NCBI GenBank assembly: GCA_965366045.1
Contig: CBDUDU010000001.1
Coordinates: 20,044-84,043, forward strand
Source of the DNA: an uncultured Oceanospirillaceae bacterium
GTDB lineage: Bacteria; Pseudomonadota; Gammaproteobacteria; Pseudomonadales; Balneatricaceae
Direction: 5' to 3'
DNA length: 64,000 nt
Position numbers and translations under genes: made by a program. Below are positions 43,363 through 49,787 of the stretch, piece by piece. A model generated the notes under the pieces. It did not search any database and was not told where the DNA came from. It saw nothing but the letters and a program-made list of their open reading frames with translations. Position 1 is the stretch's first letter. Every line of letters starts with the position of its first letter.

Positions 43363-43677
43363 GTGAATGCTTATGCCATACAGCACCCAGGTTCAGATGA
43401 TCGCCAAAGTATCCAGTCGGTTGGCGTGCATTTGATAAGACTCTGTTTATTTTTAGAACACGGACTTACACCAGAAAATGCAAATGACGCCATGCTCGCC
43501 GCCGGTAAAAATAAGAGTTCGTTCTATGTTCTCGAACCACCAAAAACATTAGGGTCAATCACTGCAGCAGATATAGTGAAGGAACAAACAGTGGATGGGC
43601 ATAAAGCCGCTGTACGAAAGAGGGCTCAAGAGGCTTGGAACACATGGTCACAGCATCATGAGACTATTAGGATGTGA
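43363..43677 (+). pseudogene. N-terminally truncated DUF5946-like protein
   Basis: NAYAIQHPG...SVGVHLIRLCL pattern recalled from DUF5946; GTG start with no RBS and no recognisable N-terminal part. Confidence 0.5.
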
Positions 43678-43772: not shown

Positions 43773-44696
43773 TCAATAATGCGATTTTTCTGGGTAGATT
43801 GGGCTGTCTTTTTGGCGCCACAGGGTTTGTTTTATGAGGCTCCAGTAGCTCCTGTAATAATAACCGCCATTACGCTGCAGGATTGATTGGCGATGGCATT
43901 GCCAGTGTCCATACACCATAAACCATGGCATCTGAGGGAACTCGTGGTGCACCTGATGTATGTTTACATTCATAAACAATACGCGGGTAAACCAAGAGCC
44001 CTCCACAATGGCGCAACGCTCATGGTTATTGTCGCCGGGCCTGTGCTCGGCATAAGATCTGGCTAAGGTGAGACTTAAACCTGGCCATACGCAAAACACC
44101 AGGTATTGCCACCACAGAATCCCTTGGCTGTGGAGCCACATCATCATTGCGCTCACTAAAAAAAGGTGTAGCCCCCAGTTGTTCCAGTCGTAAAGCTTGC
44201 CCTTGACTAACTGTTTTACTTCACTGTGTAAAAAAAGCCCCATTACCAGCCACGGCCCAATGATCATGCGGCCCATAAACGTGTGGTTAACCCGCCACAA
44301 TTTCCGCATTAAACGCCCCATGGAGTGCCATTTTCTGGGCCAGTGATAGTAGCTTTCTGGGTCTAACCCAGGTTGGGTTAGAACAGTCGTTTGGTGGTGT
44401 AAGAGATGGTGGTCGCGGTATTGGTAATAGGGTATCCACATGCTTAACGGTGGCCAGCCTAAGGCATCGTTAAGGCGCTTCCATGGGCTTGGGTGGCCGT
44501 GTATGAGTTCGTGTTGGATGCTGCCATGTAGGCACAACAGAAGCGCGCAAAGGGGCGAAACCAACCACCAAGATAGTAAACTGGCGTAATTCATTAACAT
44601 GACCCAAGCCCCATAAACGCCTACCATCAATGCCCAAGTGGGCCAGTGATGACGCTGCCATAGTGGACTCAGTTTGGTTTCTGACGTGTGCTGCAT
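43773..44696 (-). CDS. fatty acid desaturase family membrane di-iron enzyme
   Basis: His boxes HGSIQHELIH, RDHHLLHH, HQVHH; TM helices. Confidence 0.9.
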   Translation of the reverse strand: MQHTSETKLSPLWQRHHWPTWALMVGVYGAWVMLMNYASLLSWWLVSPLCALLLCLHGSIQHELIHGHPSPWKRLNDALGWPPLSMWIPYYQYRDHHLLHHQTTVLTQPGLDPESYYHWPRKWHSMGRLMRKLWRVNHTFMGRMIIGPWLVMGLFLHSEVKQLVKGKLYDWNNWGLHLFLVSAMMMWLHSQGILWWQYLVFCVWPGLSLTLARSYAEHRPGDNNHERCAIVEGSWFTRVLFMNVNIHQVHHEFPQMPWFMVYGHWQCHRQSILQRNGGYYYRSYWSLIKQTLWRQKDSPIYPEKSHY

Positions 44697-44795
44697 GGCT
44701 ATTAGGCTTAGGCTTGATTGTTGAAGGGTTGCAAGATAGCCTAGCGGTTACATTGTGACAATAGACACTTATTGCGCATTCTCAATATTTTGGTG

Positions 44796-44816
44796 TGTTG
44801 GTACAACATATGTTGT
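44796..44816. promoter_or_regulatory. overlapping palindromes, candidate XRE operator
   Basis: TGTTG-GTA-CAACA overlapping a perfect ACAACATATGTTGT in a divergent spacer. Confidence 0.55.
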
Positions 44817-44848
44817 TTAGGTACAAATGTTACTGGCGATTGAGGTAA

Positions 44849-45712
44849 ATGATGAACAGCCAAGAAAGGGTATTCCGTGTGCAGATATTTCGCAGCAGGC
44901 TTTTACAAGCCATGACTAACAGAAATATCAAACGCTCAGGCCTAGCTCAAGCCATTGGTGTGGACCGGTCAACCTTATCTCAATTGTTAGCCACAGATAA
45001 TGACCGCTTACCTAGAGTAGATACTCTCATGGCGATTGCATCTAAACTGCAGATTAGTGTGGATTGGTTGCTTGGTTTAACCAGTGAAGCGCGCTCTGGC
45101 GCAGAAATATTAAGCCAATCGTTGCAATTGACGCCAAGTTTGCCGCTGCCTTCCGATGGCAGTTTAAGGCTTTGGCACAAAGAGGCGGTGGGTAGCAAAG
45201 TTCGTTATGTGCCGGCTAATTTACCAGACTTGGTTAAAACCCAAGCTGTATTGGCCTGTGAATATGGCCAGTTTGAAAACGTGAGCCTAGAGCAAGTGAT
45301 GGAAACCACCAAAGAACGTTATCAAGCGACCCTACAGCCGGGTAGTGATCTGGAAATTTGTATGTCGGTACAGCGCTTGGAAGGCTTTGCTAACGGTGAA
45401 GGCATGTGGCAAACCCTGAGTGTTACAGATCGACGTGATCAATTAGAGTGGTTTGCTCAAGTGGCCGATGAGCTTTATCCAAAATTGCGGCTATATTTAT
45501 TTAATGAAAGTCGCAACTACGCCTCACCTTACACAATTTTTGGTACTAAGCGCTGCGCTGTATACCTTGGGCATATGTATTTTGTATTTAATACCACGGA
45601 CCATGTGCAAACGTTAACGGGCCATTTTGATGGGCTAATACGGGCGGCTGAGGTTCAGTCTCATGAGTTGAAAGATTGGATACATAAGTTGCTTAAAGAG
45701 ATGGGAGAATAG
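44849..45712 (+). CDS. XRE-family HTH regulator with large C-terminal domain
   Basis: LAQAIGVDRSTLSQL...P..DTL..IA..L.ISVDWLLGL. Confidence 0.88.
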   Translation: MMNSQERVFRVQIFRSRLLQAMTNRNIKRSGLAQAIGVDRSTLSQLLATDNDRLPRVDTLMAIASKLQISVDWLLGLTSEARSGAEILSQSLQLTPSLPLPSDGSLRLWHKEAVGSKVRYVPANLPDLVKTQAVLACEYGQFENVSLEQVMETTKERYQATLQPGSDLEICMSVQRLEGFANGEGMWQTLSVTDRRDQLEWFAQVADELYPKLRLYLFNESRNYASPYTIFGTKRCAVYLGHMYFVFNTTDHVQTLTGHFDGLIRAAEVQSHELKDWIHKLLKEMGE

Positions 45713-45715
45713 GTC

Positions 45716-46534
45716 TTGGCGCTAATTTGTGCATACCCGATGTATCAGATGCCTGAGTTGGAGGCGGTGGTTAGTGCTTGGTGGCAGTCTCTGCGCCAAC
45801 ACCTCTTGGCTCAAGGCTTGAGTGCTGGGGACCTACCTAATCTGTTGGTTGAACCAGAGAACTACTATGCCCATTGGCGTAAACCTAACCTGTTGTTGAG
45901 CCAAACCTGTGGTTACCCGTTGACTCACGAGTTACAAAATCAGGTCCAATATGTCGCTACTCAAAGCTACCAAACGGCCTACACCAAAGGGCCCAACTAC
46001 TGCAGCCTAGTATTGGTTCATAAAAAAAATAGCGCAAACCATATCAGCCAACTTAAATACACACGGCTAGCAGTAAATAGCGAGGATTCGCAATCTGGTT
46101 ATCACGCTTTAAGACGGTTTATTGCACCTCTCGCAGGCGGTGAACGGTTTTTTTCTGAGGTGGTTCACTCAGGAGCACACCGGCAGAGCATGGTCCTAGT
46201 GGCAAACGGCGAGGCCGATGTTTGCGCTGTTGATTGTGTCACTTATGGCTTATTGCAAACCCATGCACCAGCCACGATAGCCAACTTACGTGTTTTAACT
46301 CACACACAAAGTACGCTAGGGTTGCCTTACGTTACCAGTTTGGCTACGTCACCAGCGACACTGAGCAAGCTTAGAAGCGGTCTTGCGGCAGCCGCATTAG
46401 ACCCGGCGCTAAAATCAATACGGCAGCAGTTGTTGATGGGGCCAGTTGAGGTGATAACGGGGCTATATCCGTACCAAGAAATAATCAATCAAGCCCAGCA
46501 GGCCAATGAATTAGGTTACAAGCAGTTAGTTTAA
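45716..46534 (+). CDS. PhnD/SsuA-fold binding-protein-like, no signal peptide
   Basis: LLLSQTCGYP, Y.S.VLV, AVNSEDSQSGY, SGAH..S..LVA.G.ADV.AVDCVT. Confidence 0.8.
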   Translation: MALICAYPMYQMPELEAVVSAWWQSLRQHLLAQGLSAGDLPNLLVEPENYYAHWRKPNLLLSQTCGYPLTHELQNQVQYVATQSYQTAYTKGPNYCSLVLVHKKNSANHISQLKYTRLAVNSEDSQSGYHALRRFIAPLAGGERFFSEVVHSGAHRQSMVLVANGEADVCAVDCVTYGLLQTHAPATIANLRVLTHTQSTLGLPYVTSLATSPATLSKLRSGLAAAALDPALKSIRQQLLMGPVEVITGLYPYQEIINQAQQANELGYKQLV

Positions 46535-46550
46535 GAGAGAGAAAATTTAT

Positions 46551-47090
46551 ATGGCATACAGCGATATATTGCAGTTTTGGTACACAGAAATAGCACCACG
46601 TAATTGGTTTATTAAAGACTTAGAGTTCGACAAAATGCTCAAACGCCGGTTTGGCTACCTTCATCAGTGCGCAAGTGCAGGAGAGTTGGAAAGCTGGCGC
46701 CAAAAACCATTAGGGCGGTTAGCCGAAGTCATTGTGCTGGACCAATTTTCGCGCAACTTATTTAGAAATTCTGCCCAGGCCTTCGCATACGATGCCCAAG
46801 CGCTTACCTTGGCCCAAGCTGCTATAACTGCAGGGCATGATTCAGATATGTTGCCGCAACAAAAGTCTTTTTTGTACATGCCGTTTATGCACAGTGAATC
46901 GGCAAAAATACATCAACAAGCCGAACAATTGTTTAATCAACCAGGGTTAGAAAATAACTACGAATTTGAGCTTAAGCACAAAATTATCATTGATCAATTT
47001 GGCCGATACCCACACCGTAATAAACTGTTAGGTAGAACTTCAACCCCTGAAGAACTGCAGTTTTTGAGTGGGCCTAGGTCTTCGTTTTAA
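46551..47090 (+). CDS. DUF924 family protein
   Basis: ILQFW, LAEVIVLDQFSRN, F.YMPFMHSE, FGRYPHRN..LGR.ST.EE. Confidence 0.9.
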   Translation: MAYSDILQFWYTEIAPRNWFIKDLEFDKMLKRRFGYLHQCASAGELESWRQKPLGRLAEVIVLDQFSRNLFRNSAQAFAYDAQALTLAQAAITAGHDSDMLPQQKSFLYMPFMHSESAKIHQQAEQLFNQPGLENNYEFELKHKIIIDQFGRYPHRNKLLGRTSTPEELQFLSGPRSSF

Positions 47091-47261
47091 GGGTGGTGGC
47101 AAGTAACTTATATAGATTCACAGCATAGCCCACTATTAGAACTAAAGAGCGGCAGGCACTCTTTTTTGTAACCGAGATGGAAATTCCAAAATAAACGCCT
47201 ATACTTTTCAAAGCGTTGGGAGTGGAAGGTTTAGTTAAGAATAATTAGTAGTGCCGCGCTC

Positions 47262-47415
47262 TAATAATTATTTGCTGTTTTTGTTGTGGCTACAATGATA
47301 ATTTTAAGTCCAGGCTCTGGTGTTATTCTTACACTTACGAATTAAGTTCGTTATGGTATGTCTGGCGCTGTTGGAAGTATTGTAGGTATTGCTGTAGGCA
47401 CATTTAGCTAGGCAC
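47262..47415 (+). pseudogene. LysE/RhtB family translocator remnant
   Basis: NYLLF/(frameshift)VVATMIILSPGSGVILTLTN*VRYGMSGAVGSIVGIAVGTF; in-frame TAA at 47343. Confidence 0.7.
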
Positions 47416-47503
47416 AAGAAATGTCCAGCAGGTACTTGTAGAATGGACATGCAGACTGCTTAGGACAGGCATGGACGTAGATAAGTTAAATTAAAAGATC
47501 GAT

Positions 47504-48121
47504 CTATATATTCGATTTCTGTATAAGGTTGCCCCCTCGCCAAACGTATAAAGCCAGCAGTGGCTCACCTGATGTGCGCATTGAGTGTTTGATGTTACTG
47601 GCATGATAAATTAGTGGACAAGGGGCAACATGTTGCCAGCCTTTTTCTTCGTGATACCACTCAGCGGTTCCACTGAGTGGAAAGTATAATTCCTCCGCCA
47701 CGTGCCAATGCTCAGGGTAGGTAACATTATCACCAAAAAGAACTAGTCCACTTGATAACACATCGCTATGCCAATATGCATCGGGGCCTAGAAACTTTAT
47801 CCACCCATATTGCTGTAAAAATTCTTCACCAAAATCTTCTTCGGAGTACGTCTGATTGAAATGTAAATTAGATTTACTATCGATCATACGTTCGATTAAA
47901 GGCTGGTTTTCTTCAGGGGCCTGTTTTGCCATTTGTGACAAATAACATAATACTGGTAGACTTTTTGGCGCTAACATTCGGTCAGGCTTTTTCAAATCCA
48001 ACGCCGGTATTAAGCTGCACCAATCGGGCGGGCACCTTTGCCTTAGCTGAGCCAACCATAGGTCAGCCAGAGCCGACAAGCCAAGTGTGATTTTAGAATT
48101 ATTTGTAGTATCAGATTTCAT
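47504..48121 (-). CDS. cupin of the DMSP-lyase (DddQ/DddL-like) family
   Basis: YPEHWHVAEELY.PLSG cupin motif 1, HASNIKHSMRT motif 2, PLLALYVWRG. Confidence 0.75.
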   Translation of the reverse strand: MKSDTTNNSKITLGLSALADLWLAQLRQRCPPDWCSLIPALDLKKPDRMLAPKSLPVLCYLSQMAKQAPEENQPLIERMIDSKSNLHFNQTYSEEDFGEEFLQQYGWIKFLGPDAYWHSDVLSSGLVLFGDNVTYPEHWHVAEELYFPLSGTAEWYHEEKGWQHVAPCPLIYHASNIKHSMRTSGEPLLALYVWRGGNLIQKSNI

Positions 48122-48482
48122 ACAACACATTCTACCCAGATAGTATCTTGTGCCGATAGCCTAATTTATGTGGTTAAGCCTCACAGTTCCGAAATAACTA
48201 TTCACTCAGTTTTTAAACTAGTCGCCACAATATACACCAGCTTGATTTATGTTTAGTACAGCAACTGAACTAGACTTTAAATGGGTGGATGGGCACTGTT
48301 AACTCAGGCCATGAATAGCATCGAGCTGATTAGGCAGATTAATACTGGTCGCTGAAGAACTGCCCCAGTAATTTATAAGGAACATAATAATGAAAAGTAT
48401 AAATTTCCAACTACTTAGATCCAAAACATAATTACAGCTAGATTACACGCTGACAAGAAGGTTAAGTGCCTTTTGGTCGCAG

Positions 48483-49787
48483 CTAACCCCAAATATGTTT
48501 GTTCTGTCGCGTTGCTGGCCCATTGTTTGCGTTTCTGTCTGGTGCATCGCTTGTGGGTTTGCTTTTAGTCCGGTGCGTGGTTTTGGGCTGAGGCGGCTTA
48601 CTCTTGCGTATGTAATTCAAAATTGAAACGGGCACTACCTTTCTAACAACAAAACCTTCAATCTCTTTGCGCTTGATAATATGGTTTAAGCGGCTTTCTA
48701 TGGCGCACAGGTTTTTAAAGTCGCCCCATGCCACAAACGAGATAGCTTCGCCCGAGGCTCCAGCACGGCCTGTGCGACCAATACGGTGAATGTATTCTTC
48801 TGGCTTAAACGGTAAGTCATAATTTACCACCCGGCTAAGCTCACCAATATCGATACCGCGGGCAGCAACGCCTGTGGCGACTAGGTATTTTAGTTTGCCA
48901 GATTTAAAATCAGCTAAAATCTTTTCTCGACTGGCTTGGCTTTTGTCACCATGAATAGCGTCTGCTGCTATATCGCGTTTTGCTAGTTGGTCTACCAGCT
49001 TGGCCGCACCGTGCTTCTTCTCGATAAAAATGAGCGCCTGGTCCCATTTTTGATCGTTGATAAGATGGCTAAGTAGAGCAGATTTTCTGTCTTTATCTAC
49101 CGTGATTAGCCACTGGTCGATATTCGGTGCTGTGGTGGTTTTTGGTGAGACGGTTATTTCAATAGCCGGTTGGCTCATGTCGTTGTCTGAAAAACCATCA
49201 GCAAGGTGGCGCACTTCGTCGCTCATGGTGGCGGAAAATAGCAGGTTTTGACGACTTTGGGGCAGGCGGTCAATAATCTTATTCACTTCGTTACCAAAAC
49301 CCATGTCGACTATTCTGTCGGCTTCGTCTAATACCAGAACTTCTAATTCGTCAAAATGTAATGCCCGCTGGTGGGCCAAGTCCAGTAGTCGGCCTGGTGT
49401 GGCTACCAATATGTCAATGCCTTCGATCAGGCGTTGTTTTTGTGGTTCGGTATCAACGCCACCATATACGGCCATAGAGCTTAGATTTAAGTGTTTGCCA
49501 TAGTCTGCAATATTGGCAGCCACCTGCACGGCTAACTCACGGGTGGGGGTGAGAATAAGCGCGCGTATACGTTTGCCACGTAGTTTACGATCTTGGTTAA
49601 ACTTCTCCAATATCGGAAGAACAAAAGCAGCGGTTTTACCAGTACCCGTTTGAGCGGTCGCAATGAGGTCTTTACCCGCAATAACGGTGGGTATAGCTTG
49701 TTTTTGAATAGGTGTAGGAGACGTATAGCCCAAACCTTCGATTGCTTGTAGAAGGGGTTCGCATAATCCAAGGTTTGAAAATGACAT
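48483..49787 (-). CDS. DEAD-box RNA helicase (RhlE-like)
   Basis: Q motif, AQTGTGKT, PTRELA, DEAD, SAT, ARGID, HRIGRTGR. Confidence 0.95.
   Translation of the reverse strand: MSFSNLGLCEPLLQAIEGLGYTSPTPIQKQAIPTVIAGKDLIATAQTGTGKTAAFVLPILEKFNQDRKLRGKRIRALILTPTRELAVQVAANIADYGKHLNLSSMAVYGGVDTEPQKQRLIEGIDILVATPGRLLDLAHQRALHFDELEVLVLDEADRIVDMGFGNEVNKIIDRLPQSRQNLLFSATMSDEVRHLADGFSDNDMSQPAIEITVSPKTTTAPNIDQWLITVDKDRKSALLSHLINDQKWDQALIFIEKKHGAAKLVDQLAKRDIAADAIHGDKSQASREKILADFKSGKLKYLVATGVAARGIDIGELSRVVNYDLPFKPEEYIHRIGRTGRAGASGEAISFVAWGDFKNLCAIESRLNHIIKRKEIEGFVVRKVVPVSILNYIRKSKPPQPKTTHRTKSKPTSDAPDRNANNGPATRQNKHIWG

Follow-up and report, generated by a model that had tools for sequence, protein, structure and literature searches.

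What would a membrane desaturase do beside a solute-binding protein that has no transporter? The question is raised by three genes at positions 43773–46534 of a 64,000-nt stretch of DNA (the window) from an uncultured Oceanospirillaceae bacterium (contig CBDUDU010000001.1, positions 20,044 to 84,043, forward strand). They encode a membrane di-iron protein of the desaturase family (DES), a regulator of the XRE type (XRE) and a protein with the fold of the phosphonate-binding protein PhnD (PhnD-like). We find that the three genes form one functional module and that the DES–PhnD pair is its core. Each protein family is familiar in itself; what is new is their pairing and the use of the binding fold inside the cell. 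What the data show is the conservation and co-occurrence of the genes, the cytoplasmic location of the binding protein, the intact metal and pocket residues and the folds; the physical interaction of the two proteins, the class of their ligand, the reaction and the targets of the regulator we infer.

All three open reading frames (ORFs) are intact and lie as an earlier note, made from the sequence alone, had described them. DES (43773–44696, minus strand, 307 aa) is divergent from an operon that consists of the XRE gene (44849–45712, plus strand; 287 aa, an HTH_3 domain followed by a conserved C-terminal domain of ∼195 aa) and the PhnD-like gene (45716–46534, plus strand; 272 aa, TTG start), which is annotated here as an AioX-like, predicted cytoplasmic ligand-binding protein. 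The XRE stop codon and the TTG, which has a GGAG 9 nt ahead of it, are 3 nt apart, an arrangement in which PhnD-like is predicted to be translationally coupled to the XRE gene. ORFs and Pfam matches reveal no ATP-binding cassette (ABC) permease or ATPase, including the PhnC/PhnE type, within ∼5 kb of the module, again in agreement with the earlier note, and no sensor kinase adjoins it in the window.

To see which of the three genes belong together we searched 41 related genomes (the window's own, 24 others of its genus and 16 from other families) and found DES in exactly 10 of them. A PhnD-like orthologue (E ≤ 1e-63) is present in those same 10, and the XRE gene in 8 of the 10 and in none of the other genomes. 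In two genomes of the genus, which have no XRE gene, DES is more diverged (55 %) and lies directly next to a PhnD-like gene (45 %) in divergent orientation. Within the genus the distribution is patchy (10/25 genomes), and the region from DusA to a DEAD-box helicase is syntenic. Distant DES homologues (36–43 % identity) on long metagenome contigs have both partners in differing order: one contig (L030) repeats the layout of the window, PhnD<-XRE<- ->DES, and the other (L031) reads XRE<- ->DES->PhnD with a 4-nt overlap.

A scan that took one genome for each species places this type of DES in at least 593 species, cultured Serratia, Pseudomonas, Burkholderia, Rhizobium, Azospirillum and Methylosinus strains among them. 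Six-frame hidden Markov model searches of 82 loci (the best 80 of these species' loci plus L030 and L031), which span Alpha-, Beta- and Gammaproteobacteria, located PhnD-like divergent upstream of DES in 15 loci, divergent upstream with XRE between in another 15, co-directional downstream in 17 (often with 4-nt overlaps) and convergent downstream in 10. It lies more than 3 kb from DES in 5 loci and outside the DES locus in 20. Of 17 genomes without an adjoining PhnD-like gene that were checked, 11 encode a strong orthologue elsewhere (E ≤ 1e-82), and both genes are therefore present in ∼90 % of DES carriers. The pairwise distances of DES correlate with those of PhnD-like (r = 0.66, matched by 0/999 permutations), which shows co-inheritance, to which shared phylogeny contributes. 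Since co-occurrence in the genus is perfect and linkage survives rearrangement in distant taxa, the gene arrangement is not due to chance. The XRE gene, on the other hand, is found in only ∼28/82 loci with at least 8 gains or losses on the DES tree, and more than 40 loci keep PhnD-like linked to DES without it; the conserved unit is thus the DES–PhnD pair, to which XRE is an accessory. The three-gene module proposed in the earlier note is conserved and self-contained, and in the 41 related genomes the co-occurrence on which it was to be judged holds fully for two of the genes and in part for the third. As side observations, a Woeseia locus (L064, 7989–13538) has two DES paralogues flanking a PhnD-like gene, and in an Arenicellales metagenome-assembled genome (L035, 6796–8882) a second, apparently broken DES is divergent from the first.

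By sequence, DES belongs to the membrane fatty-acid desaturase/hydroxylase superfamily: it scores 93.9 bits against PF00487 (FA_desaturase; cut-off 29.7). The three His boxes that had been noticed earlier are intact (H62-E-L-I-H66-G-H68, H97-L-L-H100-H101 and H247-Q-V-H250-H251), a fourth His motif, E217-H218, stands within S-Y-A-E-H, and the box histidines and H218 are invariant or nearly so in an alignment of 34 homologues. The AlphaFold model (predicted local distance difference test score, pLDDT, 92; predicted template modelling score, pTM, 0.89) was compared with solved structures using Foldseek, which returned 8xks_K (E 1.5e-4, template modelling (TM) score 0.61), 8xqw_M and the alkane hydroxylase FtAlkB (8sbb, E 0.017). 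The nearest folds are the desaturase-like subunits of the algal Ycf2/Orf2971-FtsHi complex. SCD1 is absent from the Foldseek matches, and a PDB profile search with the DES alignment gave no match at E ≤ 10.

The second member of the pair scores 64.6 bits against PF12974 (Phosphonate-bd; cut-off 27) and falls well under the NCBIfam cut-offs for PhnD (TIGR03431; 41.1 vs 261.1 bits) and for the phosphate/phosphite/phosphonate binding-protein subfamily (TIGR01098; 60.2 vs 112.05 bits). Its ORF has a stop immediately upstream and already starts inside the first beta-strand, which leaves no space for a signal peptide. More than 100 of the best 150 cluster representatives retrieved with a DES–PhnD fusion, P0053, as query are of the PhnD-like type; they are 240–285 aa long and align from residue 2–9, and the absence of a signal peptide is therefore family-wide. 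PhnD-like is thus a cytoplasmic protein and not a conventional ABC binding protein, which bears out the suggestion of the earlier note that it does not serve conventional transport: it lacks a signal peptide and has no transporter partner in the window.

The nearest solved structures are those of the arsenite-sensing protein AioX (6esv/6esk/8ed5, E 7e-8) and of ArrX (8e-5), which rank ahead of PhnD and PtxB in the PDB comparison; the original assignment to PhnD was right as to the PF12974 fold and is to be moved towards AioX/ArrX. The AioX pocket comprises Y88, C106, Y131, S161, S163, H192 and D210, of which C106 is missing from PhnD (PMC5908839). We mapped this pocket through a HMMER alignment and counted conservation in 59 family members. 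Six of the seven residues are kept in PhnD-like: C65 for C106 (conserved in 58/59), Y95 for Y131 (48/59), S125 for S161 (59/59), S127 for S163 (55/59), H155 for H192 (49/59) and D173 for D210 (59/59), while Y88 has no conserved counterpart. Two further residues, Y10 and W54, are invariant and peculiar to the family of PhnD-like. Glu177 and Asp205, with which PhnD holds the amino group of its ligand, align with non-acidic residues, as they do in AioX. A second signal-less paralogue of PhnD-like, ∼38–40 % identical, is encoded on another contig of the window's own genome (G000, C63:10198–10923; L024 7100–7942, minus strand). It keeps the SQxC and SQSG motifs and has an LLM-class oxidoreductase, an alpha/beta hydrolase and an MFS transporter nearby; a DES partner is absent from its surroundings, and the context is uninformative. 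Paralogues of this kind occur in ∼8 genomes of the genus.

In the regulator, HTH_3 (PF01381; 31 bits vs 23) covers residues 20–74 only, and this helix-turn-helix (HTH) matches the 434 and P22 repressors in the PDB. Pfam assigns nothing to the last 200 residues, the large C-terminal domain of the earlier note, which is conserved over 27 aligned sequences (64 % mean column identity) with W109, E138, E169, C171, W187, R195, Y210, P211, R214 and H259 among the invariant residues of the protein. The structure model (pLDDT 87.6) gives marginal Foldseek matches (E 1e-3 to 5e-2, TM ∼0.5 when normalised by the target) to Nuc, NucT, PssA, Zucchini, FAM83B and TrmBL2, with TrmBL2, Nuc, NucT and PssA at E 1e-3 to 1e-2; the top one, TrmBL2 5bpi (E 1.2e-3), is likewise marginal, with a TM of 0.30–0.33 over the full length. 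The HxK(x)4D motif of catalytic phospholipase D (PLD)/Nuc proteins is absent from the XRE sequence, and we read the modelled C-terminal domain as a non-catalytic effector domain with a PLD/Nuc-like fold.

The divergent promoter region between DES and XRE contains, in 8 aligned orthologous intergenic regions, an invariant 13-mer, CAAGATAGCCTAG, and a GTGACAA block. A promoter scan together with this alignment places a probable sigma-70-type DES promoter at 44733–44761 on the minus strand, where it overlaps CAAGATAGCCTAG (−35 TTGTCA, 17-nt spacer, −10 TATCTT); the consensus match alone is weak evidence, and both hexamer regions are invariant in the genus: read on the minus strand, CAAGATAGCCTAG and the GTGACAA block hold the −10 and the −35. 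A palindrome search found a perfect 14-bp palindrome, ACAACATATGTTGT (44803–44816), 33 nt ahead of the XRE start codon, which is a candidate XRE operator; TGTTG/CAACA repeats are partly conserved within the genus. We looked for an operator common to all XRE-DES intergenic regions and discarded the idea, as each lineage has its own palindrome and no consensus emerges.

What surrounds the pair elsewhere should hint at its substrate. We tallied by Pfam family the 184 ORFs nearest to or between the module genes of the 82 loci. Parts of ABC importers are frequent (BPD_transp_1 19, ABC_tran 8, SBP_bac_5 6, OpuAC 5), followed by glutathione-linked families (GST 8, GFA 6) and families of methylamine catabolism (MttB 5, DAO at least 3, homocysteine S-methyltransferase-like 2); among these ORFs neither a family of lipid metabolism nor an acyltransferase family recurs. 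Searches with seed proteins over ±8 kb detected methylamine or betaine genes (MttB, DMGDH-like, SoxA, SoxB-like, BHMT-like, OpuAC, BCCT) in 33/82 loci, glutathione-linked genes in 24 and sulfur-scavenging genes in 3. The density of methylamine and GFA ORFs is 22.8 per 100 kb within 1 kb vs ∼4.5 per 100 kb at 3–9 kb, a ∼5-fold contrast that serves as a rough internal control with no formal test. In two Serratia species DES and PhnD-like bracket, on one strand, an OpuAC binding protein, two permeases and a CBS-domain ATPase, an importer of the quaternary-amine type as judged from its components. A gene of the GFA family, the glutathione-dependent formaldehyde-activating enzymes, stands between XRE and PhnD-like in six loci (L044, L070, L073, L078, L105 and L126), and in two (L124, L125) the start of DES shares 1 nt with an MttB gene. 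The host genus itself is, from its gene content, a predicted methylamine specialist: MttB has 7 copies in this genome and 2–15 in 24/25 genomes of the genus, and occurs in only 1/16 genomes from other families of the order.

Five more distant homologues examined on annotated plasmids or chromids have sulfur-acquisition neighbours instead. Sulfonate and sulfate ABC transporters lie alongside the homologue of Sinorhizobium fredii, a rhodanese gene and a family-2A encapsulin with cysteine-desulfurase cargo alongside that of Variovorax, and sulfite dehydrogenase and cytochrome c alongside that of Methylosinus trichosporium OB3b; Pantoea and Rhizobium leguminosarum have LLM-class monooxygenases, the latter also MsuE. 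Branches of the family may thus act on different substrates. We did not adopt a sulfur-scavenging role for the present clade, given that such genes occur in only 3 of the 82 loci nearest to the window's protein. On the Variovorax sp. PBL-E5 plasmid 3 (L130, 1–6912) the encapsulin, cargo and rhodanese genes directly adjoin the DES homologue, and a carbon–phosphorus lyase phn operon follows a few kb downstream. A Lyase_aromatic gene (histidine ammonia-lyase/ergothionase-type) near DES or an unlinked PhnD-like gene (L030 9442–10953, L031 13246–14799, L116 4619–6274, and L053) was considered as a clue and dropped, four loci being too few.

Proteins that form a complex are at times encoded as fusions, and we hunted for these with the concatenated window proteins and then with P0053 as query against 1.84 billion representatives. 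Three DES->PhnD fusions were found (P0053, P0062 and P0163). P0053 is identical in two independent short-read assemblies and joins a full PhnD-like domain in-frame through a linker of ∼40 residues; its DES part holds one in-frame TGA, and because TGA is a genuine stop in that organism this copy may be decaying. P0062 and P0163 we set aside, as their contigs are full of split genes and indel artefacts are likely; an Amidase-PhnD 'fusion' (P0054) lies on a contig with a coverage of 1.45x, and P0036 (479 aa) is a read-through call. Single in-frame stops are present in two DES copies, TAG in G024 (C224:7358–8245) and TGA in the MttB-linked metagenome contigs L124/L125 (L124 ∼2504), which suggests that the module is being lost in some lineages. 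As to its origin, the window protein and that of Aestuariispira insulae, a marine alphaproteobacterium, are sisters on the DES tree (support 96/81), nested within a group of alphaproteobacterial modules of the XRE type, and the window XRE is 49–51 % identical to its nearest alphaproteobacterial relatives. Together these suggest lateral acquisition by the Oceanospirillaceae-like host; the tree placement is uncertain because the window branch is long and compositionally deviant.

How might the pair work? A possible reading, which we favour with somewhat less than even confidence, is that DES is an oxygenase that faces the cytoplasm and acts on a small polar metabolite, that PhnD-like is its specificity or delivery subunit, and that in this clade the metabolite is linked to the betaine type. 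PhnD-like would capture a small polar oxyanion-bearing metabolite in the cytoplasm, in its AioX-like pocket, and would present it to DES or gate the enzyme. Di-iron sites of the desaturase superfamily face the cytoplasm, and by this analogy that of DES would do so too. O2 would be used there to oxidise the metabolite, which could be hydroxylated (say at a methyl group, giving formaldehyde) or desaturated; acyl lipids are probably not the substrate, which in this clade is probably tied to the catabolism of methylated amines. Because methyl hydroxylation releases formaldehyde, such a reaction would explain the embedded GFA genes. The XRE HTH would bind the divergent promoter region and control both DES and its own XRE-PhnD operon, with the PLD-like C-terminal domain probably sensing substrate or product; in that case the locus may indeed be the 'ligand-inducible oxidation system' that the earlier note supposed.

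Several observations weigh against this. By Pfam scan the window holds no ferredoxin, rubredoxin, Rieske or reductase gene, and no ferredoxin, Rieske or reductase family recurs among the 184 neighbouring ORFs; with its redox partner unlinked, DES is unlike MocDEF, AlkB-AlkG-AlkT and XylMA. The pocket of PhnD-like, as mapped, resembles that of a small inorganic oxyanion sensor, and betaine should fit it poorly because PhnD's acidic amino-group residues are absent. The contexts are heterogeneous, with methylamine genes in only ∼40 % of the loci and with the sulfur genes of the plasmid-borne branch, and MttB, which we had tried as a phyletic correlate of DES, is uninformative: being near-universal in the genus it cannot separate carriers from non-carriers. 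The fusions are weak evidence for a DES–PhnD complex and only suggestive. Finally, DES is the sole PF00487 gene in this 2.3-Mb genome, which leaves room for a role in lipid metabolism. It is the unlinked redox partner, the inorganic-oxyanion-type pocket and the mixed contexts that keep the oxygenase reading tentative.

If DES were instead an acyl-lipid desaturase or hydroxylase, PhnD-like could be an allosteric sensor that switches the enzyme with the level of a cytoplasmic solute, such as a compatible solute or an oxyanion pool, and couples membrane remodelling to osmotic or nutrient state. Such a protein would be expected to have the full His set, the desaturase-like fold and the PF00487 membership of DES and to be the only one of its kind in the genome; the want of a linked redox partner would be normal, as it is for bacterial acyl-lipid desaturases that use a general ferredoxin, and the Serratia operon with its osmoprotectant-type importer would fit an osmotic-stress regulon. 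We nevertheless consider this unlikely, as lipid-biosynthesis and acyltransferase genes do not recur nearby, the gene is patchily distributed even within the genus, and it is MttB, DMGDH, Sox and GFA that are concentrated beside the module. We also know of no characterised lipid desaturase that needs a binding-protein partner. A purely regulatory role for PhnD-like, as a cytoplasmic AioX-like sensor for XRE with DES a mere regulated target and no direct contact between the two, appears improbable. It would account for the coupling of PhnD-like to XRE rather than to DES in the window and for the XRE-PhnD order repeated in ∼15 loci, and the binding proteins AioX and ArrX, its nearest relatives of known structure, serve in signalling (PMC5908839). 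Against it, PhnD-like stays with DES in more than 40 loci without XRE, often with a 4-nt overlap, so that the pure sensor envisaged in the earlier note as one option is unlikely; moreover, the two XRE-less genomes of the genus have both other genes, and XRE accompanies DES even where PhnD-like is encoded elsewhere.

Similarly improbable is that PhnD-like helps to assemble or repair the di-iron centre of DES or delivers metal to it, or that it scavenges an oxyanion such as sulfite released by the reaction. The pocket Tyr, His, Asp, Cys and Ser could coordinate metal, as the transferrin-like FbpA proteins of the same fold class do, the pocket matches sensors of pyramidal oxyanions, and sulfite dehydrogenase, rhodanese and sulfonate or sulfate transporters adjoin the plasmid-borne homologues; yet the residues are the oxyanion ones of AioX/PhnD and not a known iron site, no other membrane desaturase is known to need such a factor, and the sulfur genes are confined to 3/82 loci. 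That DES and PhnD-like are neighbours merely through inherited synteny, with no functional link, is hardly credible: the DusA–helicase region is indeed syntenic within the genus, but presence and absence of the two genes match perfectly in 41 genomes, and the pair recurs in three proteobacterial classes in four arrangements with differing flanks.

Searches of the literature library found no description of a desaturase-PhnD pair and no characterised pathway of such architecture, as the earlier note had maintained, and a 2025 PNAS paper on aerobic betaine demethylation mentions neither gene. In public annotation DES is a 'fatty acid desaturase' and PhnD-like a 'PhnD/SsuA/transferrin family substrate-binding protein', names that are probably both misleading as to function. 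We know of no membrane desaturase-superfamily enzyme with a dedicated cytoplasmic binding-fold partner. It is doubtful, though worth stating, that a solute-binding fold acts here as the intracellular substrate-capturing subunit of a membrane di-iron enzyme, which would make the pair a novel two-component class of oxygenase and its reaction an undescribed O2-dependent step in osmolyte turnover. Were it so, a step such as oxidative demethylation with release of formaldehyde would turn over betaine-type, zwitterionic or oxyanionic osmolytes in hundreds of proteobacterial species, marine methylamine specialists included, and the repertoire of binding-protein folds would be widened. If the pair oxidises a metabolite linked to betaine or methylamine (or, in the other branch, to organosulfur), it would supply a missing enzyme for ocean and soil nutrient cycles.

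The flanks of the module in the window are, by Pfam, AzlC/AzlD, a truncated DUF5946 gene, DUF924 and a cupin of the dimethylsulfoniopropionate (DMSP) lyase family. The DUF5946 gene (43363–43677, plus strand) matches profile positions 43–141 of 141 only, its N-terminal part being gone; close relatives have an intact copy (L014), a remnant of 18 residues (L015) or no copy at all (L013), and the gene, which stands between AzlC and DES, appears to be decaying or variable. The DUF924 gene (46551–47090, plus strand) begins 16 nt after PhnD-like on the same strand and is possibly co-transcribed with the module; it is syntenic in most orthologues of the genus, and at a distant locus (L108) a DUF924 gene, 41 % identical, lies ∼0.7 kb from PhnD-like. 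The cupin (47504–48130; PF16867, E 2.8e-25) falls inside a stretch of lower GC content (46500–48500, 0.41 vs ∼0.47), and a cupin of this type is near DES in one further locus only (L066).

Finally, we compared the module with known systems. The architecture of XRE has a precedent in the TrmB regulators, which join a DNA-binding domain to a PLD-like, non-catalytic effector-type domain, as XRE may do; theirs is a winged helix where XRE has an XRE/Cro-type HTH, and we detected no sequence similarity between the two. For a small polar substrate there is precedent in MocD, a rhizopine oxygenase, and RtxC, both of which we take to belong to the membrane desaturase superfamily. We know of no cytoplasmic binding-fold partner of either. 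RtxC is the dihydrorhizobitoxine desaturase (PMC6304460) and mocDEF is the rhizopine catabolic operon (PMC10107442). Like the proposed DES, both are superfamily members reported to act on small polar molecules; MocD is encoded with a Rieske ferredoxin and reductase, RtxC with rtxA, and they are set beside DES by description only.

AlkB shares with DES the three His boxes, a fourth His motif and the helical membrane fold. Its fourth motif, N-Y-x-E-H-Y-G, compares with S-Y-A-E-H in DES. From AlkB and the acyl-lipid desaturases alike DES differs in having neither a linked rubredoxin or ferredoxin nor hydrocarbon or lipid genes around it. PhnD and PtxB (3p7i, 5o2j) have PF12974, the Ser-x-Ser-Gly anion motif and the Tyr/His pocket residues in common with PhnD-like, which lacks their signal peptide, PhnC/PhnE and the acidic residues that bind the amino group of 2-aminoethylphosphonate. 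The periplasmic AioX passes its signal to the AioS/AioR two-component system, sensors of this kind being encoded with a sensor kinase and a response regulator (XSR cluster), whereas PhnD-like, only ∼25–30 % identical to AioX, has no signal peptide and no kinase and is linked to DES; what PhnD-like holds in common with AioX, ArxX and ArrX (6esv, 6esk, 8ed5, 6x6b) is the PhnD fold and a pocket that includes the equivalent of Cys106, and none of them belongs to a transporter.

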